NCBI GenBank assembly: GCA_027031765.1
Contig: JALVPN010000143.1
Span: 1-31,686, forward strand
Reading direction: 5' to 3'
Length of the DNA: 31,686 bases
DNA from: Promethearchaeota archaeon
GTDB taxonomy: Archaea > Asgardarchaeota > Thorarchaeia > Thorarchaeales > Thorarchaeaceae
The position numbers were made by a program, and so were the translations under genes. The notes under the pieces were generated by a model that had not been told where the DNA came from, did no database searches, and worked only from the letters and a program-made list of their open reading frames with translations. This document shows positions 15,080-26,634 of this stretch, in pieces (within the stretch, counting starts at the first letter, position 1; every line of letters starts with the position of its first letter).

Positions 15080-17536
15080 TCACTGGCGGACGTAGATGGC
15101 CTCGTTGGAGTCGGGGAGCGCAACCCTGACGAACCCGGCTGCGTCATCGGGTACGCCAAAGCGTAGCGACTCGACCCCATGCATTGCCTGGAGGTCTCGC
15201 GCCCACGGCTCCAGACACTGCGGTATGTATGCCTCAGCCACGCCCTGCCTGAGGGACAGGCCTGCCTCACGTTTGAACTTCCAGAAACCACTGTTGACCA
15301 TGAGGAGAAGGGCTGTGTGTTCAGTCAATGGAGATTGCCACTCCTCACGGACAGTGGGATAGGACTGACTGTGAATCCCATGGGCGTCGTATAGCTCGCG
15401 GTATATGCGGTCAGTGATGAACGGTGAGATTGGCGCCAACGCCAAGAGGACTGTCCTCAGTGTCTCATGGAGGGCGAACCACCCGGACTGCTGCTCGTGT
15501 TCGGTGAACGCATTCTCGTTGTTGAAACAGCGTCCCTTCAACATCTCAAGGACATGGTCTGCAAAGAAGTTCCACGTGAAACCGCGTATCTCAATTGCGG
15601 GCTTGTGGAAGTCGAGCTGGTCACACTCCGGGAGGATTCGTCCGACCAAGCTGTTGGTCTCCGCGAGGATCCACTGGTCCACCGCTGTCAGGTCGTCAAA
15701 GGGTATCGGGTCGGGAACCGGGAACATCGACACAAAGCGGGCGATGTTCCACAGCTTGGTCATGAACTTGGCGACTCCAGCCAGGCGTTCCTCGGAGAAA
15801 CGGATGTCACTGCCAAGGCCAGCCTCAAGGACGCCGAACAGCCGGATTGCATCTGCACCGTACTTCTTGACAAGGGGCATGGGCGGAGGAGAGTTGCCCT
15901 TGCTCTTGCTCATGGCCTCGCCCTTCTCGTCCACAACATGGCCCGAGACCCACACTTCTCTGAAGGCCGGCTTGCCAGTGAGCTGATAGGTCCTGAGCAG
16001 TGAGTAGTACAGCCAAGTGCGGACGATGTCCTTGCCCTGTGGCCGGAGGACATTGCCGAAGGCCTTCTTGAACAGCTCTTCGTCCCGGAGGTAGCCGACG
16101 ACCTGCAGGCCACTGATTGAGGAGTCCATCCATGTGTCGAAGGTGCGCTCTTCGCCCCTGAAACCCTCCTCAGCACCGCACTTGGGACACTTTGTGAACG
16201 GCGGGTCCTCGCACCAAGGACGGTAGTAGCGGAGCTCTGACCCAATCTCGGGTACCACAGCTTCCCCACACGCGTTACAGTACCAGACCGGGATCTCGGT
16301 GCCATAGTACCTGCGCCGACTGATTGGCCAGTCCACCGTCACACGGTTCAGCCAGTCGATGAGTATCTGGCGGTGGAAGGGCGGGTAAAAGGTCATTTCC
16401 TGTGCAATCTCGTGTAGGTCATCGATGAACTCCTTCTGACGGACATAGTACTCGTCCATGGCTATGAACTCGATTGGTGTGTGACTGCGCCAGCAGAGGG
16501 GCACCCGCTGCATGGTCTCCTCCTGTTTGTATAGGATGCCCTCCGCTTTCAGGTCCTCGATGATGCGTCTGCGGGCCTCCTCAATCCTCAACCCGGCATA
16601 CTTTCCAGCAGCCTCCGTCATGGTGCCGTCCGGCGACACCGCCGCAACGGGCTTGAGGCCATAGTCACGGAACGCCATCACGTCGGCCTGGTCACCGTAG
16701 CTACACACCATCAGGGCGCCCGTCCCGAACTCCATCTGGGCCGTTGGGCTCTCAATGATGGGCACCTCGAAGTCAAAGAGGGGCACACGTGCCTTCTTAC
16801 CACGGTACTCCTTGTACCGCTCGTCGTCAGGGTGTACGAACACAGCCCCACAGGCACAGAGGAGTTCTGGCCTCGTCGTGGCAATGTGTATTGGTTCCAT
16901 GCCCTCGACAGGGAAGTAGAGGTAGTTCAGCGTGGTCTTCCGCTCCGCGTACTCCACCTCGGCGTCCGCGATGGTGGTGCCACATTCGAAACACCAGTTG
17001 TTCGGACGGTAGTCGCTGTATACGAGGCCCTCGTTCCACAGATGTATGAAGGTGGCCTGTGTCACGGCCCTGTACTCTGGACTGTCAGTACGATAACTGC
17101 CCTCCCGCTCATAGGTGTTGAAACCAATCCCAAGCCTCTTGAAACCCTCGATTGCGACCTCCTCGTCCGCATCCAAGAGCTCCTTACACTTCTGGATGAA
17201 CACCTCACGTGGGGTCTCGTGCATGTTCAGACCGAGCTCCTTCTCGACACGCACCTCTACGGGGAGACCATTGCGGTCGATACCAAGTGGGAAGTTTACC
17301 ACCCAGCCCTGCATACGTCTGTACCGGGCAATCATATCAATCTGGCAGTAGTGTATCACCTGACCGACATGCATTGGTCCCGACAGATATGGGGGCGGGG
17401 TGTCGACCGTGTAGATCTCCCTGTCAGTGGAGGGGTCGAACTTGTAAGTGTCCTCGGTAACCCAGGTCTCGAGCAGGGCCTCTTCGTCCTGCGGTTTCCA
17501 CCGTTTTGATTGTATCTTTGGTTTGAATGGGGACAA
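15080..17536 (-). CDS. valS: Valyl-tRNA synthetase, archaeal type
   Basis: DTPPPYLSGPMHVGQ (HIGH), DWPISRRRYYG, FDTWMDSS, MSKSKGN (KMSKS) and RPQGKDIV. TTG start. Confidence 0.93.
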   Translation of the reverse strand: MSPFKPKIQSKRWKPQDEEALLETWVTEDTYKFDPSTDREIYTVDTPPPYLSGPMHVGQVIHYCQIDMIARYRRMQGWVVNFPLGIDRNGLPVEVRVEKELGLNMHETPREVFIQKCKELLDADEEVAIEGFKRLGIGFNTYEREGSYRTDSPEYRAVTQATFIHLWNEGLVYSDYRPNNWCFECGTTIADAEVEYAERKTTLNYLYFPVEGMEPIHIATTRPELLCACGAVFVHPDDERYKEYRGKKARVPLFDFEVPIIESPTAQMEFGTGALMVCSYGDQADVMAFRDYGLKPVAAVSPDGTMTEAAGKYAGLRIEEARRRIIEDLKAEGILYKQEETMQRVPLCWRSHTPIEFIAMDEYYVRQKEFIDDLHEIAQEMTFYPPFHRQILIDWLNRVTVDWPISRRRYYGTEIPVWYCNACGEAVVPEIGSELRYYRPWCEDPPFTKCPKCGAEEGFRGEERTFDTWMDSSISGLQVVGYLRDEELFKKAFGNVLRPQGKDIVRTWLYYSLLRTYQLTGKPAFREVWVSGHVVDEKGEAMSKSKGNSPPPMPLVKKYGADAIRLFGVLEAGLGSDIRFSEERLAGVAKFMTKLWNIARFVSMFPVPDPIPFDDLTAVDQWILAETNSLVGRILPECDQLDFHKPAIEIRGFTWNFFADHVLEMLKGRCFNNENAFTEHEQQSGWFALHETLRTVLLALAPISPFITDRIYRELYDAHGIHSQSYPTVREEWQSPLTEHTALLLMVNSGFWKFKREAGLSLRQGVAEAYIPQCLEPWARDLQAMHGVESLRFGVPDDAAGFVRVALPDSNEAIYVRQ

Positions 17537-17685: not shown

Positions 17686-18513
17686 CTAGTCCCACACTTT
17701 CTTACCCACTGCCAGTCCAAGGACAATGCCCACGGGTAGCGCTATGAGGGCAGGTGTCAGAGTGGTCAGCAGGGAACCCCCAAGGGCGCTCGTACCACTG
17801 GTACGTGTAAACTTTGTAGACCTCACGTAGTAGATGGTGAGGTCAGCCCGGTACAGCCGCGCGGTCGCTGTGAGTTCGTATGTGGAGAGCACGCCGTCCT
17901 CGTCGTATGATGCAGAGAAGGAGTACTCAAGGGTGCCAGTCGCATTGGTGGGCGGGTCCTCCACATCCACTATGAACCTGAATGCAAAGGTGCCCTCATC
18001 TGCAGAGAATGCCGTGTCGTGGACCATCGGGTTGTGCACCGTTTCGTTGACCGCATTGCTCCAGTCGTCATCATGAGTTGCCCATGAGGGGTTGACAAAG
18101 AAGGAACGCCCGGGATAGCGTGGCACAGATTCTGGGTAGACCCTGAGACTCGTGGCCGATGAGCGGTTGTCATGGTCAGGATCCAGTGTTGTGAGTGACC
18201 AATAGACCTTGTTGGACTGGAACCTACTTGTGCCATTGTAGTCCTCAGGCACGGGCACGCCCTGCGCATTGAAGCCACGGTAGTGATACCGGATTACGTC
18301 ATCACCGCCCGCTGTCGTCACATCCAGGACAGTGATTGAGAACTCTCCGGTCACAAGTGATTTGAAAGTGGGGGCTGTGTCCTGCTGGTAAGTCTGTTCG
18401 AGAAAGGTTCCCGTGAAATAGTATACGTTTCCAACCAGCTGTGCACCGGCGGGTGTGGGGATGAAGGCCACTACGATGATAAAGATCAGTACGGGCAAGG
18501 CACGACTCCTCAA
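17686..18513 (-). CDS. Secreted, C-terminally membrane-anchored hypothetical protein
   Basis: Signal peptide (MRSRALPVLIFIIVVAFIPTPAGA), Thr/Tyr-rich beta-type body, and C-terminal hydrophobic helix followed by KK. Confidence 0.75.
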   Translation of the reverse strand: MRSRALPVLIFIIVVAFIPTPAGAQLVGNVYYFTGTFLEQTYQQDTAPTFKSLVTGEFSITVLDVTTAGGDDVIRYHYRGFNAQGVPVPEDYNGTSRFQSNKVYWSLTTLDPDHDNRSSATSLRVYPESVPRYPGRSFFVNPSWATHDDDWSNAVNETVHNPMVHDTAFSADEGTFAFRFIVDVEDPPTNATGTLEYSFSASYDEDGVLSTYELTATARLYRADLTIYYVRSTKFTRTSGTSALGGSLLTTLTPALIALPVGIVLGLAVGKKVWD

Positions 18514-18752: not shown

Positions 18753-19454
18753 ATGAGGACTGTCCTGAAGCTCGGCGGGTCACTCCTATACGATGAGGAC
18801 GGACGGATACGTGTTGAGAGGATACGCGAGTATGCAGACATCATAAGGGGAGCAGTGGACAGTGGGAACAACATAGTGACCGTCGTTGGTGGGGGGCGGG
18901 CTGCAAGAGAGTTCATTGCAGCGGCCCGGACACTAGGCGGCAGTGAGGCGCTATGCGACTGGCTTGGCATCAGGCTGGCACGGGACAATGCTGAGCTGCT
19001 GGTCGCAGCACTTGGTGATACTGCGTATCCGCGGGTCGTCGAGAACCTCAAGCAGTTGGGGACTGCTGTGCTGACAGGGCGGGTCGTCCTCATGGGAGGC
19101 CTGGTCCCCGGACAGTCCACAAACGCCGTTGCAGCCATGGCTGCTGAGACCATTAACGCGGATGTGCTGCTGAACGCCACAAATGTCGAGGGGGTCTACG
19201 ATAGAGACCCGGGAGAGCCCGGGGCCAGGCTGTTGGAGCGGGTGACCGTCGACGAGCTTGAGTCAATACTGGCGGGCAGCGGTGCGCGTGCAGGCGAGTA
19301 CAAGCTGTTCGACTCGGTAGCAATCAGGATAGTGGGACGGTCACGGATTAAGACCCTGATATTCGATGGACGCGACCCGGACAACGTCCGGCGTGCACTG
19401 GCAGGAGAACCGGTCGGGAGCGTTATAGTACATGACACACGACAGTGCCAGTAG
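18753..19454 (+). CDS. pyrH: Uridylate kinase (archaeal type)
   Basis: VLKLGGS, VVGGGRAAR, MGGLVPGQSTNAVAA, ATNVEGVYDRDP and FDSVA. Confidence 0.93.
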   Translation: MRTVLKLGGSLLYDEDGRIRVERIREYADIIRGAVDSGNNIVTVVGGGRAAREFIAAARTLGGSEALCDWLGIRLARDNAELLVAALGDTAYPRVVENLKQLGTAVLTGRVVLMGGLVPGQSTNAVAAMAAETINADVLLNATNVEGVYDRDPGEPGARLLERVTVDELESILAGSGARAGEYKLFDSVAIRIVGRSRIKTLIFDGRDPDNVRRALAGEPVGSVIVHDTRQCQ

Positions 19455-19758
19455 GCCCAGACCAAAGAGCACACGACTGCTCGAGAAGATATTCGCCTCT
19501 CGGGCACAGACTCGGGTCGTACAGCACTTTCTCGACCGGCCGAAGGACTTTTTCAACCTGAGCAGGATAGCGAAAGAAACAGGGCTTGCCCACTCAACCG
19601 TGCACAGGGTCCTCCAGCCACTGGTGGAAATCGGTATCGTCAAGGAGATCAGGGTCGGAAAGCAGATACGGCTCTTCGTGTTGGAGTCGGAACTTGAGAT
19701 GACAAAGATACTGATGGAGTTTTACACAGCCGTCAGGCCATTCTTAGAGAGGCTGTAG
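19432..19758 (+). CDS. Winged helix-turn-helix transcriptional regulator
   Basis: LSRIAKETGLAHSTVHRVLQPLVEIGIV HTH followed by the wing KEIRVGKQIRLFVL. Confidence 0.8.
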   Translation: MTHDSASRPRPKSTRLLEKIFASRAQTRVVQHFLDRPKDFFNLSRIAKETGLAHSTVHRVLQPLVEIGIVKEIRVGKQIRLFVLESELEMTKILMEFYTAVRPFLERL

Positions 19759-19905
19759 TGACTGGCCGCAGCCAGTGGTGTCGGGTGGGCTACTGATGGT
19801 TGACACACCACATGTTTCGCAGTCCGGGGAAACGTAGGTTGCCCGGCAGAGTATTAAGTCTGGATGCGGTGATGAGCTCAATTGTTGTCCCGGAGATGCG
19901 TTCAA

Positions 19906-22900
19906 ATGTCTGAGGAAGTAGAGGAAGTACTGGATGTGGTGCAGCTATCTGAGGAGGAGCTGCAGTCTTACTCACTGGTACTGGCCCTTGGAAACGTGAC
20001 TCTCGGCGACCTGGTCCTGCTACAGGGCTTTAGTGTCGAACAGGCGGAGGAAATCATCTCGAAGCTCGAAGAACGACGTATGGTTGTCAAGCTACCGGGT
20101 ATTGTTACGAGGTACCAGGCGGTGCCGCCGTTCGAGGGACTTGCAGAAGAGATTGGTACCGTTGTCAAGAAGATTGACGAAGTGCGGGAGCAGCTACGCA
20201 AGAGCATCGAGACGTCTGCACGCAGTGTAAGGGACGCCCTCTTGGAGCTGGCCAAGGGACACCATGCAGACCTCAAGCAACAGGGCTCGGCCCTCGATGC
20301 AGCCCGTTCGGAGGCCACAGGGGCAGTGAGTGAGCTGGCTGACAGGGCGAAGAAGGAGTACGGGGATGCACTGATGCATGAGGCTGCTGAGTTGGAAACG
20401 ACCCTCCAGAAGTGGAGCGACGAGGCGGGTACACTGGTGGAGACCGAGATAGGGCAGACCCAAGAGGCCGTGTCGAGCACATGGAGTGACATCAGGGCGC
20501 GAGTGGAGGAGCTGAGGGGCAGTGCCAAGGAGTCTGCTGGACGGGTCCGTGAAGACCTGAGCAGTGCAGTGATGCGGTTCAGGGATGGTGCTGCAGCTGG
20601 GCTCAAGGCCCAAGGGGACAGCGCTAAGGAGGGCATCCAGCGAGAGATTGACACGCTCAAGGCGGCTCTGGAAGAGCAGAGGGCAGCAACAGATACCACG
20701 TTGCAGGAACTCGGCAGCAATGCGGAGAACACCGGGCGGCAACTCGCCAGGGAGGCCACGGGAGCGATGGACACGGCACTCCAAGACATAGAGCAGGCGA
20801 TGAGCAGACTCACGACGGAGGTACAGGAGGGACTAGACAGCGTTGCTGCGGACATTGGGACAGTGATGGAAGAAGCGGGGACACGAGAAACACAGATGCT
20901 CGACGAACACAGGGGTGCAGTGAAGGCGGATGTGGAGGCATTCGTCCAACGCCAGTCCGAGGCTGCGGAGTCGTTCAAGCTGACGACCGGACAGGCGCTG
21001 GATCACCTCGTAGAAGTCAGTAATAGCAGCATCACGTCAATCCGAGAACAGCTAGACAGCGCAGCAGGACACAGTGAAGCGGCCCTGAACAGTGCGATGC
21101 AGTCCATGAAGGACAACTCTGTGGCAGCTGTACAGGGTATGTATGACAGCACTGTCGAGATGACACAGCTGTTCTCCGAAGAAACACGGGGGCTGCTGAA
21201 CACCAAGAAGACCGAACTTGAGAACACTGTCCACCAGATACGGGACTCGTTCATCACGCTCAACGACCGGATGCTGGAGAGCAGCAGGGGACTGCTTGAC
21301 ACGACGAGGACCACAGTGGTCGAACAGATGGCCGCAATCGTGCAGCAGACCAGACAGGAAATGGAGAAGCTCACGAGAGAAACGCAGCAGCAGCTGGCCC
21401 GTCTTGCGGATACGCTGAAACAGTCAATCGACACTACGGTTGCAAGTACAACGCAGGAAATCCATGCCATCAACACGGCGGTCGTGGCCATGCTTGAACA
21501 GCAACACGAGGCCCTTCGGAATGAGTTTGAGGAGAAGGTCAACGACCTCAGCTCAAAGGTGCAGGAGGGACATGACACACTTGCCGGGACAATTGCAGAG
21601 GAGACCGACAGACAGGTCACACTCCATGACGAGGCGATTGGTTCGGTCCTCTCAAAAGTGGACGAGCTGAAGGGACACGTTGACAGGAAGGCAGACAGTG
21701 TACGCCGCGAAACGGTGGGACGTGTCGAGACCGTGCTCTCAGGGACTACAGCAGACACGATCCAGACGATTAAGACGATGAGAGAGGAAACGACGGAGGT
21801 CGTGACCAGCCTAGCGACTGCAATCCAAGATGCTGTTGACAACACTCGGAACAAGGCGGCTGTTGTCGTCGAACAGTTCAAGCGGACAGCTGGCGAGGCT
21901 GGGAGCACGCTCCAAGGCCGTGTGGACGAGCTCGTGCAGACGCTGACTGAGAAGACCAAGGCAGACCGGGACAGGGTCCAGGAGGATGTCAACCGGGTCT
22001 TGCATGGTGCATCGGAACACATGGGCAAGGCCGTACCCGATGTGGTAGCACGCCTGCGTACTGAGGGCTCCTCGGTCCAGGAGAGGGTCGGGGGAGCACT
22101 GAGTGGTGCAGGGGAGCAGGCCAGAATGGCCATTGCAGGTGCTGCACAGGGCACGGCAGAGGCCATAGACGGAGCCATACAGGGACTCGATGAAACACGT
22201 GGCACCATCAGCAGCAACATTGCCACAGCCCTGGAACAGGTCGGGTCAAGACTCGCAGACCACTGTGACTCCATGGTAAAGAGCATCGACTCTGCAGTGT
22301 CGGTGTTCCAGGACAAGGTCGAGGCGGACACGGGACAGAGCACGACACAGATGGAGGCTGCCGTAAAGACTGCAACGACACGCCTCGAAAAGGTCAAGAC
22401 CGACCTGAAGGGTGCCGTGACGACGGCTGGCAGCGAGTGCAAGGAGATAGTTACAAGGATCAGTACAGCCACCTCCAAGAAGGTCCTGGGCGCACTGGAG
22501 AAGTTCGCGAATGATGCACGAGGACGCATTGGCAGTACATATGACTCCATCAGGCAGACTCTCGACTCGTTGACCAGCAGTCTGGAAGAGCACATCAGCG
22601 ACCTTGAGGGCACCCCGATGCTCGGTGTCACCGAGGAGACTGTCAAGACGGCCCTCAAGGAGACCGAGGTGGGCGAGCTGGCGGGCATGGATGTAGCAAC
22701 AGTCCTCTCGAAAGTGTGGGACAGACTTGCGGCCACCGACTTCCCCGGCGCAAAGCACACATGGACTGTCGTCACGCGCAAGGCCGTACTGTCACACATC
22801 GAGGACATGGTCAGACGTGCCAAGTCCAAGGTCACACTGATAGTCCCAGACCCGCGGGACGTGCCCACACAGACGCTTGCTGAGTTGAAGTCGAGCATCG

Positions 22901-23175
22901 GCGTGGAGCTCGTAGTCACCGAGGGCGGCAACCTTGAGACAGCCGTGAAGCCACTGGTAGGCCGGGGCAACATCAGGGTGAGGGTCAGGGCCGAGAAGGA
23001 TGTGTATGCCTGCGTACGTGACAGCGAGGAAGTACTGCTCGCGCCGGCTGCGACCAGGGACTCTGATGTCATCGGGATGACCTCGGAGTATGAGGGGATG
23101 GTGCGCTTTGTCATGGGCATAGTGGGGCCCATATTCCAGGCCAGGACGAGGATGCTACGGCCCGGGGACATCTGA
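19906..23175 (+). CDS. TrmB-family protein: N-terminal wHTH, ~820-aa hendecad helical rod, C-terminal TrmB effector-binding-like domain (1089 aa)
   Basis: N-terminus LSEEELQSYSLVLALG...RYQAVPP and C-terminus WTVVTRKAVLSHIEDMVRRAK...RDSEEVLLA. The centre has 11-residue hydrophobic periodicity. TATTAAG lies at 19852. Confidence 0.8.
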   Translation: MSEEVEEVLDVVQLSEEELQSYSLVLALGNVTLGDLVLLQGFSVEQAEEIISKLEERRMVVKLPGIVTRYQAVPPFEGLAEEIGTVVKKIDEVREQLRKSIETSARSVRDALLELAKGHHADLKQQGSALDAARSEATGAVSELADRAKKEYGDALMHEAAELETTLQKWSDEAGTLVETEIGQTQEAVSSTWSDIRARVEELRGSAKESAGRVREDLSSAVMRFRDGAAAGLKAQGDSAKEGIQREIDTLKAALEEQRAATDTTLQELGSNAENTGRQLAREATGAMDTALQDIEQAMSRLTTEVQEGLDSVAADIGTVMEEAGTRETQMLDEHRGAVKADVEAFVQRQSEAAESFKLTTGQALDHLVEVSNSSITSIREQLDSAAGHSEAALNSAMQSMKDNSVAAVQGMYDSTVEMTQLFSEETRGLLNTKKTELENTVHQIRDSFITLNDRMLESSRGLLDTTRTTVVEQMAAIVQQTRQEMEKLTRETQQQLARLADTLKQSIDTTVASTTQEIHAINTAVVAMLEQQHEALRNEFEEKVNDLSSKVQEGHDTLAGTIAEETDRQVTLHDEAIGSVLSKVDELKGHVDRKADSVRRETVGRVETVLSGTTADTIQTIKTMREETTEVVTSLATAIQDAVDNTRNKAAVVVEQFKRTAGEAGSTLQGRVDELVQTLTEKTKADRDRVQEDVNRVLHGASEHMGKAVPDVVARLRTEGSSVQERVGGALSGAGEQARMAIAGAAQGTAEAIDGAIQGLDETRGTISSNIATALEQVGSRLADHCDSMVKSIDSAVSVFQDKVEADTGQSTTQMEAAVKTATTRLEKVKTDLKGAVTTAGSECKEIVTRISTATSKKVLGALEKFANDARGRIGSTYDSIRQTLDSLTSSLEEHISDLEGTPMLGVTEETVKTALKETEVGELAGMDVATVLSKVWDRLAATDFPGAKHTWTVVTRKAVLSHIEDMVRRAKSKVTLIVPDPRDVPTQTLAELKSSIGVELVVTEGGNLETAVKPLVGRGNIRVRVRAEKDVYACVRDSEEVLLAPAATRDSDVIGMTSEYEGMVRFVMGIVGPIFQARTRMLRPGDI

Positions 23176-23207
23176 AATGGCGGCCCGGGCAGGATTAGCG
23201 GGACATA

Positions 23208-23220
23208 GAAACCCCTATAT
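23208..23220 (+). promoter_or_regulatory. BRE/TATA for tRNA-Leu
   Basis: GAAACCCCTATAT about 30 nt upstream of the tRNA 5' end. Confidence 0.5.
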
Positions 23221-23247
23221 GTCATGGGCATGACGGAAACGGTGGAT

Positions 23248-23356
23248 GCCGAGGTAGCCAAGCGGTCAACGGCGGCGGACTCAAGATCCAAAGAGGACTC
23301 CATGAGACATCCGCTCTCGTAGGAGTTCGGGAGTTCAAATCTCCCCCTCGGCACCA
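23248..23356 (+). tRNA. tRNA-Leu (CAA) with a 23-nt intron (23286-23308) at 37/38, CCA encoded
   Basis: Acceptor GCCGAGG/CCTCGGC, anticodon stem GCGGA/TCCGC, long variable arm CTC-GTAG-GAG and T arm GGGAG/CTCCC. BHB helix CTCA/TGAG has 3-nt bulges. Confidence 0.93.
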
Positions 23357-23408
23357 CCCACTTGTTGGAGGCGGGGACAATGGTGAGAAAGAAGAGGAGA
23401 CTAGATGC

Positions 23409-23439
23409 AAGAAAAGGACGGGAGGTAGGGAGCGACCTC
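23409..23439 (-). terminator. Hairpin plus pyrimidine tract ending a minus-strand transcript
   Basis: On the - strand, GAGGT-cgctccct-ACCTC is followed by CCGTCCTTTTCTT. Confidence 0.35.
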
Positions 23440-23562
23440 ACATCCCCACCCCAAAACAAGCGGCGAGACGGGCAGCATGACCACCCTGTGCTTGTGACCG
23501 GGGCTCCGACTGACTGGGCTCGGCTCAAGGATGGTATTACCCTGCGCCAGTACAAGGCTGCC

Positions 23563-23658
23563 TCACCTGCCAAAGTATGCAGGTGCAATCGCATCGATGA
23601 CAATCCTGCGGGACCGGGTCTTCCGCTTGTCACGACGAGCGTTCTTCATCAGTGCCAT
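23563..23658 (-). CDS. Candidate 31-aa basic small protein MALMKNARRDKRKTRSRRIVIDAIAPAYFGR
   Basis: Below the ORF-track cutoff. Strong AGGTGA Shine-Dalgarno 7 nt upstream, TATA palindrome at 23811-23822, and location in an otherwise empty 540-bp gap. Confidence 0.45.
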   Translation of the reverse strand: MALMKNARRDKRKTRSRRIVIDAIAPAYFGR

Positions 23659-23896
23659 GTCTTCTTCACCTTTCGAACAGTTTCTGTGGACAGGCCCGCA
23701 CAGGCCGGAGTGCGACACCGCGGTCCACAGGGGCCTCATTTCGGTCTGCGACCGCGGTCAGCAGTTCATTGCCAGACGACATCTGTCTACAGGGGGAGTG
23801 CTCAGACTGGCACTATATAGTGGAACCACAGTGTGGGGTCGCAGGACAGAAACACGACATGGAGTCACAAGTTGTGACTACCATGACACTCACACC

Positions 23897-25609
23897 TCAC
23901 TTGTGCAGCACACGGAGGAGCTCGTCCAGTGGAAGGGTGTTGAGTACATCACCACACGTGAGCCAGCCGCGCCGGGCCTGGAAGACGCCGAACCGCATGT
24001 TGTCGAGCTCGGATGTGCGGTGTGCATCTGTGTTGACGGCGATGCGGAGGCCGGCCCTCACCGCCGCACGCAGATTGCCAGCGTTAAGGTCGAGGCGACG
24101 CGGGAGAGCATTGAGTTCCATGGCCACGTTGTTCTCACGTGCGGTCTCGAACACTGCATCGAGGTCGACATCATAGGCTGGCCGTCGCAGCAGGAGCCGA
24201 CCTGTGGGATGTCCGAGCACATCCACATGTCTGTTCTGGAGGGCACTGCATATCCGTCCGGTCATTGTTTCCCGGTCGTCCTTCAGGCGCGAGTGGACAG
24301 AGGCTATCACGACATCAAGCTGTGCAAGGACATCGTCTGAGAGGTCGAGCTCCCCATTGGGCAGGATGTCCACTTCAATGCCGGTCAGGATGCGGACGCG
24401 CCACCTGCCAGAACTGTTGATCTCACGGATGGCGTCCACCTGTTGGAGGAGGCGCTCTTCGTCGAGGCCATTTGCAATCGAGAGGCTCTTGGAATGGTCA
24501 GAAATACACAGGTACTCATAACCACGGGCATCAGCCGCGGCAACCATTGCCTCCAGCGAGTCCACACCATCAGAAGCATCGGTGTGACTGTGGAGGTCGC
24601 CACGGATATCATCAGTTGTGACGAGAGGGGGGAGAGAGCCCTTCAGGGCCGCTTCCACCTCACCCTGGTCCTCTCGCAGTTCGGGCGGGATGAGTGGCAT
24701 GCCCAGCGCCTCATAGACTCCCGACTCCTCAGCACCGGCCAGTCGCTCCCCGTTCCGGAACAGGCCGTACTCGTTGAGGCGCAGCCCACGCCTCTTAGCA
24801 ATGTCGCGGAGGCGGATATTGTGACTGCGACTCCCGGTGAAGTACTGAGTGCCAGCCCCAAAGCTCTCGCTAGGGATGAACCGTACGTCCACCTGCATAC
24901 CATTGGTGAGCCGGACAGATGTCTTTGTAGGGCCACGTGCAATCACCGCCTCAATGTCATCACGGGCCACAAGTGCTGCGGAGACCTGTCCCGGCTCCTC
25001 CGCATCGACAATGATGTCGATGTCACGTACGGTCTCGCGCCGACGGCGGATGGAGCCGGCAAGGGTCACCTGGCGGACTCCGGGTATTGAGGCCAGCCAG
25101 TCACGCAGGGGCTCCGCGGTAGCGAGTGCGTCCGACAGCAGCACCCGCTCCATGCCTGCACGGACAAGTGAAATCCCCTCAATGATTGCCTGCTCGGTCT
25201 TCTTACCAAGGCCATGCAGTGCTGCAAGCTTGCCCGAACGGGCAGCCCGTTCCAATGACTCGAGGTCAGTGACTCCAAGTTCCTTGTATACCAGCCGTAT
25301 GGTCTTGGGACCGACACCAGGGATTGCTTCCAGTTCCATGACCTTCACAGGAATGCGTGCACGGAGCCGGTCTAGCAACTCTATGTGACCGGTCTCAAGA
25401 TAGGCCTTAATCTTCTCCGCAATCGACTTGCCAATGCCCGGGATTTCTGTGAGGGCATCCCTTGCCGCAATCGACTCGACGTCTTCTCCGAGGCCCTCGA
25501 TGGCGCGGGCAGCACGGCGGTATGCCTGGGGCTTGAACCTGTCCTTGCCCTCAATGTCGAGGAGTGTCGCAATCTCCCTGAACGCGGCTGCGACCTCGTG
25601 GTTCTTCAA
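23897..25609 (-). CDS. polX: Family X DNA polymerase with PHP (3'-5' exonuclease) domain, 570 aa
   Basis: AYRRAA, HhH IPGIG/IPGVG, GSIRRRRETVRDIDI, QVDVR, YFTGS and PHP motifs DLHSHT, SDHS, GHPTGR, NTDAH. TTG 25609 overlaps the upstream TGA and follows GGGAGG. Confidence 0.93.
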   Translation of the reverse strand: MKNHEVAAAFREIATLLDIEGKDRFKPQAYRRAARAIEGLGEDVESIAARDALTEIPGIGKSIAEKIKAYLETGHIELLDRLRARIPVKVMELEAIPGVGPKTIRLVYKELGVTDLESLERAARSGKLAALHGLGKKTEQAIIEGISLVRAGMERVLLSDALATAEPLRDWLASIPGVRQVTLAGSIRRRRETVRDIDIIVDAEEPGQVSAALVARDDIEAVIARGPTKTSVRLTNGMQVDVRFIPSESFGAGTQYFTGSRSHNIRLRDIAKRRGLRLNEYGLFRNGERLAGAEESGVYEALGMPLIPPELREDQGEVEAALKGSLPPLVTTDDIRGDLHSHTDASDGVDSLEAMVAAADARGYEYLCISDHSKSLSIANGLDEERLLQQVDAIREINSSGRWRVRILTGIEVDILPNGELDLSDDVLAQLDVVIASVHSRLKDDRETMTGRICSALQNRHVDVLGHPTGRLLLRRPAYDVDLDAVFETARENNVAMELNALPRRLDLNAGNLRAAVRAGLRIAVNTDAHRTSELDNMRFGVFQARRGWLTCGDVLNTLPLDELLRVLHK

Positions 25610-26634
25610 GCGTATGCCTCCCACTCTCTGTCCCAAGGTGAGATGCTGTGCACCGCCTCCACTGCAGCCCTGATGTTGTCCATAGGGGTGTCAGTGGTAA
25701 TGACACAGCCGGGCCCAACAATCAGGCGACGCAGGCCTGCCATACGGACTGCCTCCAGCACCTGCTCCCTGACAGCATCAGGGTCACCAGTCCGCAGTGT
25801 GCCGGAGTGGTCAATCCCACCGAGAACCGCTTTCCGTGAGATGCGCTTTCCGTCTTTGAGCGATGGCGTCGTGTCATGGGCCTCCCAGTTCAGGACATCA
25901 ATACCGGGTGTGTGTGCAATCCTGTTGAACCTGACCTCGTCCCCCGGTGCATTTGCATGCAGGTGCATCACGATGAAGTCTGCTTTCCCGCGCAGGGCGG
26001 ACACAAGCTTCAGGTCGTGGGGGAGTACGAACCGGTCGTACTGTTCGTCCGACACGGAGGACATGGTCGAGTGCTGTGAGGCAATGAACAGCCCATCAGC
26101 GCCAGCCTCAAGGACTGCCCGTGCAAAGTCAATCATCACGCTGTTAATCATCATGAGAACCGAGCCCATGACATCAGGACACTGGTCGAGGTGTTCTGTG
26201 AGTGGCACATCGCAGAGCTTGTCTGCCACCATTGGAGCATCAAAGATTGTGGCCATCACCGGTATGTGACCTTCTGCGTACTCGTGTACAAGGCGCACTG
26301 CATCGACCTGCCGTCCAAACTCTCCAGCGCTGACATCAATGGGCTCAAGCACTTCCCAGTCATGCGCACACTGGACGGCACAGGTCTTGCACTTGGTGGA
26401 ACCCGTTATCGAACCGTCATAGTAAACTGTACAGCCCCAGTCAACAACAGGGTACCTCCCGTGGAACGACACCTTGATGAGGTCATGACCTAGCAGTCGG
26501 TGGAAAGCGGTCTCAGCGGCGGCCAGACCATGGGGCGTGCGGTCCTTCTCGGGGTGGTGCCGCCAGACCGAGACCGGCACGGTCTCTTCGAGGTTGCCGA
26601 GGAGGACTGACCGGAGCAGTTCGAAGTGCGACAT
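25606..26634 (-). CDS. Uroporphyrinogen decarboxylase (URO-D/MtaA) superfamily protein, 342 aa
   Basis: PVSVWRH, GADGLFIASQ, VMHLH, VLGGIDH and IVGPGCVI TIM-barrel motifs. The substrate cannot be assigned. Confidence 0.8.
   Translation of the reverse strand: MSHFELLRSVLLGNLEETVPVSVWRHHPEKDRTPHGLAAAETAFHRLLGHDLIKVSFHGRYPVVDWGCTVYYDGSITGSTKCKTCAVQCAHDWEVLEPIDVSAGEFGRQVDAVRLVHEYAEGHIPVMATIFDAPMVADKLCDVPLTEHLDQCPDVMGSVLMMINSVMIDFARAVLEAGADGLFIASQHSTMSSVSDEQYDRFVLPHDLKLVSALRGKADFIVMHLHANAPGDEVRFNRIAHTPGIDVLNWEAHDTTPSLKDGKRISRKAVLGGIDHSGTLRTGDPDAVREQVLEAVRMAGLRRLIVGPGCVITTDTPMDNIRAAVEAVHSISPWDREWEAYA

Follow-up and report, generated by a model that had tools for sequence, protein, structure and literature searches.

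The window analyzed here is a stretch of 31,686 nucleotides (nt) from a Promethearchaeota archaeon of the Thorarchaeaceae (contig JALVPN010000143.1), and it carries a gene whose 1089-residue product appears to be a stretched member of the TrmB family. Judged from sequence and predicted structure, this is a TrmBL2-type protein with a giant insertion in place of the short amphipathic pairing helix of the family: the winged helix-turn-helix (wHTH) domain and the C-terminal PLD-like domain are separated by a rod of approximately 75 consecutive 11-residue (hendecad) repeats. Antiparallel pairing of the rod's two halves about amino acid (aa) ~507 is the most likely arrangement. What is new is that a TrmB-family protein has been rebuilt as a hendecad rod of fixed length. 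We tentatively favor a model, to which we give somewhat less than an even chance, where this Asgard-specific protein is nearest to TrmBL2, carries a midpoint-paired rod and a TrmBL2-like DNA-binding head, and acts as a spacer, ruler, or strut of the nucleoid. A first-pass annotation, made from the letters alone, had named this protein as a candidate for an undescribed system, and in our literature search no paper was found that describes a TrmB protein with a giant rod. In one 2026 preprint, "TrmBL" is listed as a family of chromatin proteins, but giant forms are not described there. Homologous proteins are labeled in databases as hypothetical or as "helix-turn-helix domain-containing".

The rod helix begins at aa 76, straight after a PPF motif, and P711 is the only proline between P75 and P904. 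This agrees with the earlier statement that some 820 residues with a single proline separate the two ends of the protein. The same annotation had noted that hydrophobic residues recur every 11 positions, quoting hendecads that we located at aa 255-320, and computation bears this out. Fourier analysis of Kyte-Doolittle hydropathy over aa 80-901 yields a peak at 3.67 residues (11/3) with a power of 993 and a harmonic at 2.2, whereas the maximum power in 300 shuffled sequences averages 57 and reaches 127 at the highest. The phase, measured in 44-residue windows, stays within -38 to -116 degrees from aa 67 to approximately aa 900, which corresponds to a drift of less than one residue without stutter or skip. 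Large hydrophobic residues are found at hendecad positions a (75%), d (42%), e (42%), and h (55%), and the remaining positions are polar. The resulting seam takes up 4 of the 11 positions, or an arc of ~130 degrees, with ~2.1 large hydrophobics per repeat. The geometry is that of a 3-11 helix. Lys and Arg are enriched at interfacial positions 9 and 11 and Asp and Glu at the center of the polar face. The rod as a whole has a net charge of -49 and a high content of Thr, Ser, Gly, and Ala.

The full-length monomer model produced by AlphaFold2 (AF2) divides this region into four helices (aa 76-254, 263-503, 509-749, and 757-901) and has a predicted local distance difference test score (pLDDT) of 69.6. 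No tandem repeat was found within the rod at the DNA level, and the similarity between rod segments is weak (best E ~1e-3). Thus, the array appears to be ancient and degenerate, and its weak internal similarity argues that the four modeled helices are not four recent duplicates. The 3.67-residue periodicity is present in all orthologs and in nearly all of approximately 100 longer homologs (3.66-3.68), most of which also have the TrmB wHTH.

Searches with single sequences by phmmer gave no significant Protein Data Bank (PDB) match for either the N-terminus or the C-terminus, and therefore profiles and fold searches were needed to place the two ends. A region search with the C-terminal domain recovered 29 proteins of 858-1154 aa whose C-terminal domains are 52-67% identical, labeled as Thorarchaeota with one Lokiarchaeota entry; the ortholog set used below comprises 27 proteins of 999-1154 aa. 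The first-pass annotation had assigned both termini to the TrmB type, and the assignment stands. At the N-terminus, aa 1-110 taken by themselves score 25.9 bits with the TrmB model PF01978 (cut-off 25.6), the score in a scan of the whole protein is 22.2 bits, and all 29 of the 29 family N-termini match the model. A profile of these N-termini finds TrmBL2 (PDB 5bpd, E 1.4e-14) and TrmB (3qph, E 4.6e-11), with other winged helices far behind. The AF2 model of the N-terminal domain shows three helices and a beta wing, and wing residue Arg69 is invariant among the orthologs.

The C-terminal domain was modeled from a 63-sequence alignment, and 10-residue blocks over aa 950-1059 have mean pLDDT values of 91-98. 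The nearest Foldseek match of this model is again TrmBL2 (5bpd, E 1.9e-9). TrmB (2f5t) superimposes with a root-mean-square deviation of 3.0 A over 141 columns, and further matches share the PLD fold (Nuc, Zucchini, FAM83, and PLDs). The Regulator_TrmB model PF11495 scores 19.1 bits, which is below its cut-off of 22.2, and 29 of the 63 family members match it weakly. This match spans only profile positions 3-121 of 233, at which point the protein stops, so that the PLD-like first subdomain is present and the second, sugar-binding subdomain of TrmB is absent. TrmBL2 likewise has no second effector subdomain (PMC4158304), and a reading of this domain as a sugar sensor of the TrmB type is not supported. 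The domain carries a net charge of +3 and contains no HKD motif. A feature search of the ESM Atlas with this domain returned leads scoring below 0.9 (archaeal TrmB-regulator and PLDc_2 clusters) that are consistent with the assignment and add nothing to it. An invariant Arg-rich strand (IRVRVR...D...RD.EE, window positions 22972-23031, aa 1023-1042) lies at the place of the HKD motif in PLD-fold enzymes. This strand may be a phosphate- or nucleic-acid-binding site in a degenerate active site.

The case for pairing of the rod halves begins with the length differences among the orthologs. These differences (22, 29, 48, 52, 110, and 114 aa) are centered on rod positions 415-451 of 868, where the midpoint is position 434. 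The placement is the same whether taken from a MAFFT alignment, from pairwise alignments made independently, or from a score scan with a single gap, and in the scan a gap at the center scores 690-900 versus 200-480 for a gap at the rod ends. At least five independent length changes are seen on a tree of the conserved ends. The PPF motif and W938 lie exactly 862 aa apart in sequences from both deep clades, 860 aa apart in one subclade, and 748 aa apart in another. Length is thus held far more closely than sequence, given that mean identity to the window protein across the 27 orthologs is 46% for the wHTH, 67% for the C-terminal domain, and 17% for the rod. Within the rod, conservation shows a better-kept block at aa ~370-650 with poorer flanks, and its best mirror center is aa 506-509. 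The breaks in the AF2 model at ~258, ~506 (aa 504-508), and ~753 are mirror-symmetric about 506, and aa 76 reflected about 506 falls on 936, at the start of the C-terminal domain junction. In addition, the best fold matches of the full-length model are proteins built from a head and an antiparallel arm, namely MukB, condensin, Rad50, Smc5/6, PrgA, and chemoreceptors, including "elbow" entries.

The midpoint insertions and deletions, the mirrored conservation, and the mirrored AF2 breaks together support a model where the two halves of the rod pair antiparallel. Such pairing would place the wHTH beside the C-terminal domain, contrary to the earlier proposal of a ~120 nm tether that links DNA to a distant sensor. 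A mirror correlation of the hydrophobicity profile was uninformative because the repeat itself gives peaks every 5.5 residues, and 506 lies on this lattice like many other centers.

Mirror symmetry is equally expected from an intramolecular hairpin and from two extended helices that pair antiparallel as a homodimer. In several paralog classes, the hendecad pattern is interrupted or a Gly/Pro-rich segment occurs exactly at the rod center, as computed from the domain boundaries of each protein (P0038, P0051, P0060, P0109, P0105/P0124, and P0120), and in orthologs P0027 and P0029 the hendecad signal is weakest at the center of the rod. These features favor a fold-back. P0105 and P0124 share a conserved motif, RGSAWKAL(L/F), at the exact center of their rods.

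A number of observations weigh against this picture. Foldseek TM-scores against the SMC-like proteins are only 0.07-0.19, although low values are expected for long, floppy models. The full-length AF2 model has a predicted TM-score of 0.28, and a monomer model cannot show pairing between chains. In the ortholog group of the window protein there is no Gly or Pro within 25 residues of the rod center on either side, the middle of the rod being the sole 50-residue bin without either residue, and the hendecad phase runs continuously through the center. The lengths of the central deletions modulo 11 are 0, 7, 4, 8, 0, and 4, such that five of the six preserve helical phase. Across 90 family members, the center is on average not enriched in Gly or Pro. 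A center free of helix breakers and continuous in phase is unusual for a hairpin tip and keeps a domain-swapped dimer possible. The swapped dimer is also supported by what is known of TrmB, whose coiled-coil helix pairs antiparallel between chains (F81/I91', F84/L88') and has been described as a domain-swap hinge (PMC4158304). For this protein we regard the two arrangements as nearly balanced, with a slight lean toward the fold-back. The same contacts would be made in either state, whether in a closed monomer or in a swapped dimer.

In the model we propose, the short TrmB helix that pairs antiparallel with that of its partner would have been lengthened to ~826 residues. If the chain folds back on itself, it would form a two-helix arm of ~62 nm with one head built from its own wHTH and C-terminal domain. 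If two chains swap, they would form an antiparallel dimer of ~124 nm, both ends of which would carry a mixed head. Either arrangement would set the wHTH next to the PLD-like domain in the manner of TrmBL2, and the rod would be a strut whose length is kept while its sequence is free to change. By analogy with TrmBL2, the head might bind DNA with little sequence specificity, and the rod might serve as a spacer, ruler, or bridging strut for nucleoid organization rather than as part of a sugar-responsive switch. TrmBL2 of Thermococcus coats DNA, forms thick fibers, and represses transcription (PMC4158304; PMC11894787), and Sso10a shares the design of a wHTH on an antiparallel coil. A nucleoid-associated head joined to a rod of fixed length would therefore be the most economical mechanism.

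DNA binding by the head is nevertheless doubtful on sequence grounds. In the hidden Markov model (HMM) alignment, two Glu residues stand opposite Tyr50 and Asp51, which contact DNA, of the TrmBL2 "RTYD" and TrmB "RVYD" motifs. These two residues are not conserved family-wide, and the consensus at this place is "leeve". The net charge is -2 for the recognition-helix region, -1 for the wHTH core, and -8 for the N-terminal tail. This D/E-rich tail is longer in many orthologs (roughly 30-60 aa, among P0004-P0026). It could be an autoinhibitory mimic of DNA or could bind basic proteins such as histones. Because the Tyr and Asp are absent and the recognition helix, tail, and rod are acidic, the winged helix may serve protein contacts instead.

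A scaffold or cytoskeletal element that does not bind DNA is accordingly the alternative we take most seriously, even though we consider it unlikely. Its winged helix would be used for protein contacts, as in RPC82/RPC34 of RNA polymerase III or in ESCRT-II, and rods would join head-to-head or laterally into struts, bundles, or a lattice to organize the cytoplasm or protrusions rather than DNA. Beyond the acidic recognition helix and the missing Tyr and Asp, this reading draws on two family N-termini that also match the RPC82 model HTH_9 (best E 5e-7) and on weak matches of the N-terminal profile to the winged helices of RPC6/RPC39. It is also consistent with the presence of several paralogs per genome in discrete length classes, whose rods range from 253 to 1538 aa. 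Nuc and Zucchini, the single-domain PLD-fold proteins matched by the C-terminal domain, are known to form dimers, which is in keeping with this reading. However, both ends have as their nearest homolog a DNA-coating protein of chromatin, and Arg69 of the wing is invariant in the orthologs. Moreover, gene regulation is retained by TrmB-family members in which the Tyr is missing, MreA being an example (PMC4158304).

The parallel arrangement implied by the earlier tether proposal deserves separate mention. A parallel, extended coiled coil of ~120 nm would hold a DNA-bound pair of wHTH domains at one end and a pair of sensor or effector domains at the other. A continuous and almost proline-free helix with an unbroken register and no breaker at its center is what such a tether would look like, and the conserved 862-aa spacing between the ends would fit as well. 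However, this arrangement gives no reason for length changes confined to the midpoint or for the mirrored conservation, and a loop sits exactly midway along the rod in several of the paralog classes. The ancestral TrmB helix pairs antiparallel, and the C-terminal domain has no ligand-binding subdomain. We consider the parallel tether improbable.

The first-pass annotation had also raised the possibility of an array of 11-residue repeats that binds lipid. In this reading, a rod like those of apolipoproteins, perilipins, or LEA proteins would bind lipid or membrane and couple the state of the membrane to the TrmB-like domains. The Pfam Apolipoprotein model (PF01442) indeed scores 105 bits against a cut-off of 90, in six stretches, and ApoLp-III scores 31 bits. 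The 3-11 helix geometry, with interfacial Lys and Arg and with Asp and Glu in the middle of the polar face, and the richness in Thr, Ser, Gly, and Ala point the same way. However, a periodic composition common to both is enough to produce such a score, which does not imply homology. The seam is narrow, the single proline in 826 aa is at odds with Pro-punctuated 22-mers, and the rod is strongly negative. No signal peptide or membrane anchor was found, and the midpoint symmetry is left unexplained. This is the weaker reading, and we give it a slim chance. An ordinary, sequence-specific TrmB-type factor that acts at a few promoters is a further alternative, in which the long arm would be decorative or regulatory and might, for example, occlude sites sterically or recruit partners. 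It would agree with most characterized TrmB-family proteins being specific regulators (PMC4158304) and with a gene that has its own 147-nt upstream spacer and TATTAAG element. We judge it improbable as well, given that both ends are nearest to the non-specific member of the family, that the effector subdomain is absent, and that a length fixed to the residue, a rod sequence free to vary, and up to seven matches per genome in length classes speak for a structural role.

The distribution of the family bears on the preferred model of a midpoint-paired nucleoid strut. An exhaustive HMMER search of 1.84 billion representatives yielded 157 clusters, and all named homologs are from Asgard archaea (Thor-, Loki-, Hel-, Frey-, Sigyn-, Njord-, Hod-, Heimdall-, Ran-, and Atabeyarchaeia). 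The C-terminal domain is found in 197 of 201 sampled genomes of the phylum and in 58 of 59 genera, with one to seven matches in each genome that nearly always fall within open frames of ~450-1900 aa. Rods fall into length classes of 253, 375, ~530, ~605, ~708, 748, ~860, ~1018, ~1076, 1492, and ~1537 aa. The classes are kept across orders; examples, by protein length, are ~1300 aa in Thor-, Frey-, and Helarchaeota, ~761 aa in one family of genomes, and ~1794 aa in another family. The conserved length, the free sequence, and the length classes together indicate a structural role.

A bolder version of this idea is that the family provides Asgard-wide sets of length-quantized rulers, derived from a chromatin protein, that keep segments of the chromosome, or the nucleoid and the rest of the cell, at fixed distances from each other. 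We regard this version as rather unlikely. Rods of 253-1538 residues would then span ~20-230 nm depending on topology, either as double-headed antiparallel rods or as brush-like arms on heads that coat DNA. If true, the closest prokaryotic relatives of eukaryotes would possess a physical scaffold that compartments the nucleoid. More generally, conserved and seemingly abundant struts of fixed length on heads of a DNA-binding type would bear on how nucleoid and cytoplasm are organized in these archaea. The TrmB family has been known for small sugar-responsive regulators and one chromatin protein, and here its pairing helix has become a rod of tens to hundreds of nanometers. Whether the rod is a fold-back arm or a double-headed swapped rod is a clean structural question that can be answered.

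The host genome carries two copies of the family, the rod gene of the window and a paralog of 1298 aa on another contig. The paralog (contig C31, L004:5936-9832, minus strand) has a periodicity of 3.66. Directly upstream of it is a gene for a 268-aa protein (L004:9893-10699, minus strand) with a Cys-rich N-terminus (C..C plus two spaced Cys residues) and no Pfam family match. Homologs of this protein (~270-300 aa; BLASTP E 1e-23 to 1e-40) are encoded upstream of a 1302-aa Freyarchaeota member and a 1732-aa Helarchaeota member. The Cys-rich protein is a better candidate for a partner than the small wHTH protein encoded next to the rod gene in the window.

That small wHTH gene, which lies directly upstream, had been suggested as a possible partner in the first-pass annotation. 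Its start overlaps the end of an amino-acid-kinase-family gene by 23 nt, and the order of kinase and then wHTH is also found in public locus L007. Among 46 genomes of the order, 44 carry the wHTH and 18 the rod ortholog; both genes occur together in 17 of them, and in only 5 of these 17 are they adjacent. The adjacency recurs in L007, where the wHTH is 74% identical. Given how rarely the two are adjacent and how much more widely the wHTH occurs, it is a lineage-specific neighbor and not a partner.

The rod protein itself is found, identical, on two public metagenome contigs with the same neighboring genes. Among sequencing runs, a hydrothermal-vent metagenome, possibly the source of this DNA, is the sole one listed as containing it, and no RNA run is listed. 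An in-frame TTG at 19882 is an alternative start, but the ATG at 19906 is favored because orthologs from other genomes likewise open with MSE. The 147-nt spacer upstream of the gene contains an A/T-rich TATTAAG element, identified by eye, ~50 nt 5' of this ATG. An open reading frame (ORF) antisense to the gene (21003-23633, minus strand, 876 aa) was set aside as a mere shadow of the coding strand, which is strongly purine-rich (AT skew 0.26-0.32). The coordinates of all assigned features are collected in Table 1.

Table 1. Features of the rod gene and its two upstream neighbors, with positions in the 31,686-nt window.
Feature	Position	Strand	Evidence
Whole gene, stretched TrmBL2-like rod protein	19906..23175	+	1089 aa plus stop; ORF list and translation
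Acidic N-terminal tail, aa 1-18, net charge -8	19906..19959	+	Charge count; ortholog N-termini
TrmB-type wHTH, aa 11-75, ending in invariant PPF motif	19936..20130	+	PF01978; profile match; AF2
Hendecad rod, aa 76-901 (~826 aa), ~75 consecutive 11-residue repeats, single register	20131..22608	+	Fourier; phase; AF2
Rod midpoint, aa ~502-512; probable symmetry point, as hairpin tip or antiparallel-dimer dyad	21409..21441	+	Insertions and deletions; AF2 breaks; conservation
Conserved junction helices, aa 902-949, with W938 and DFPGAK motif	22609..22752	+	Invariant ortholog-alignment columns; AF2 helices 910-916 and 926-943
C-terminal PLD-like domain, TrmBL2/TrmB type, aa 950-1089	22753..23172	+	AF2; Foldseek; PF11495
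Small wHTH gene, 108 aa, IclR-type HTH	19432..19758	+	PF09339, 33.6 bits
Amino-acid-kinase-family gene	18753..19454	+	PF00696, 102 bits

The neighborhood of the rod gene is syntenic with a metagenome-assembled genome labeled as Lokiarchaeota (L007). Directly downstream of the rod gene is a basic ORF of 146 aa (23380-23820, plus strand) that is a called gene on both public contigs, is not conserved downstream in L007, and has no family match. Farther downstream is a gene for a family-X DNA polymerase with a PHP domain (23897-25636, minus strand), which is followed on public contigs L005-L007 by a called URO-D gene. A gene for a class-I aminoacyl-tRNA synthetase (15080-17536, minus strand) lies to the other side of the rod gene, and these genes look ordinary. 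Also on that side is an ORF of 275 aa (17686-18513, minus strand) that is conserved on both public contigs. The 275-aa product has a hydrophobic N-terminal segment resembling a signal peptide and no Pfam match, and a Pfam scan of the neighboring ORFs of no assigned function likewise gave no match.

Several known systems share parts of this design. Exchangeable apolipoproteins (PF01442) and perilipin-4 have the amphipathic 11-residue periodicity of the rod, and the giant amphipathic helix of perilipin-4 is an 11-mer array of comparable length. However, apolipoproteins consist of Pro-punctuated 22-mers with a wide non-polar face, whereas the window rod has a single proline, a narrow seam, a strongly acidic character, and cytoplasmic ends of the TrmB type. 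The right-handed coiled coil (RHCC) of tetrabrachion and the E-G peripheral stalk of A/V-ATPases, the latter a two-stranded, right-handed hendecad coiled coil, have the same 11/3 periodicity and a/d/e/h core. They are parallel and extend over ~50-100 residues, whereas the window rod has ~75 repeats and is probably antiparallel.

The arms of SMC, MukB, and Rad50 proteins and the hairpins of methyl-accepting chemotaxis proteins (MCPs) resemble a possible topology of the window protein, in that a head formed by the N- and C-termini would be carried on a long antiparallel arm. SMC and Rad50 proteins have an ABC ATPase head, whereas no ATPase family was found here in Pfam or NCBIfam scans. They also have a hinge or zinc hook, whereas the center of the window rod is plain hendecad sequence with no CxxC motif and no globular insert. 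The methylation and signaling tip of MCPs is absent, and the rod is built on hendecads, not on heptads. Among the length classes of chemoreceptors, length changes are symmetric about the tip. Sso10a of Sulfolobus (PDB 1R7J, 4WH0), a chromatin protein that bends and bridges DNA with winged helices on an antiparallel coiled-coil rod (PMC4941522, where 1R7J is printed as 1RJ7), is a small-scale precedent for the domain-swapped arrangement. However, it has only ~95 aa, no C-terminal domain, and a rod of a few nanometers, and it is homologous to the window protein in the general wHTH fold only.

The closest relatives are within the TrmB family itself. The sugar-sensing TrmB proteins of P. furiosus and T. 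litoralis (PDB 3qph, 2f5t) have a similar wHTH and first effector subdomain. They differ in possessing the second subdomain, where most residues that bind sugar are located, and the window helix is ~40 times longer than theirs. TrmBL2 (TK0471/PF0496; PDB 5bpd, 5bpi, 5box, 5bqt), a chromatin protein of Thermococcales, follows the same plan of wHTH, pairing helix, and PLD-like C-terminal domain, and it is both the nearest profile match of the N-terminus and the nearest fold match of the C-terminal domain. TrmBL2 has 264 aa and a pairing helix of a few dozen residues, whereas the window protein has a hendecad helix of ~826 aa. In addition, the window protein does not conserve Tyr50 and Asp51, has an acidic N-terminal tail, and carries a C-terminal domain whose subfamily, among named homologs, is found only in Asgard archaea.

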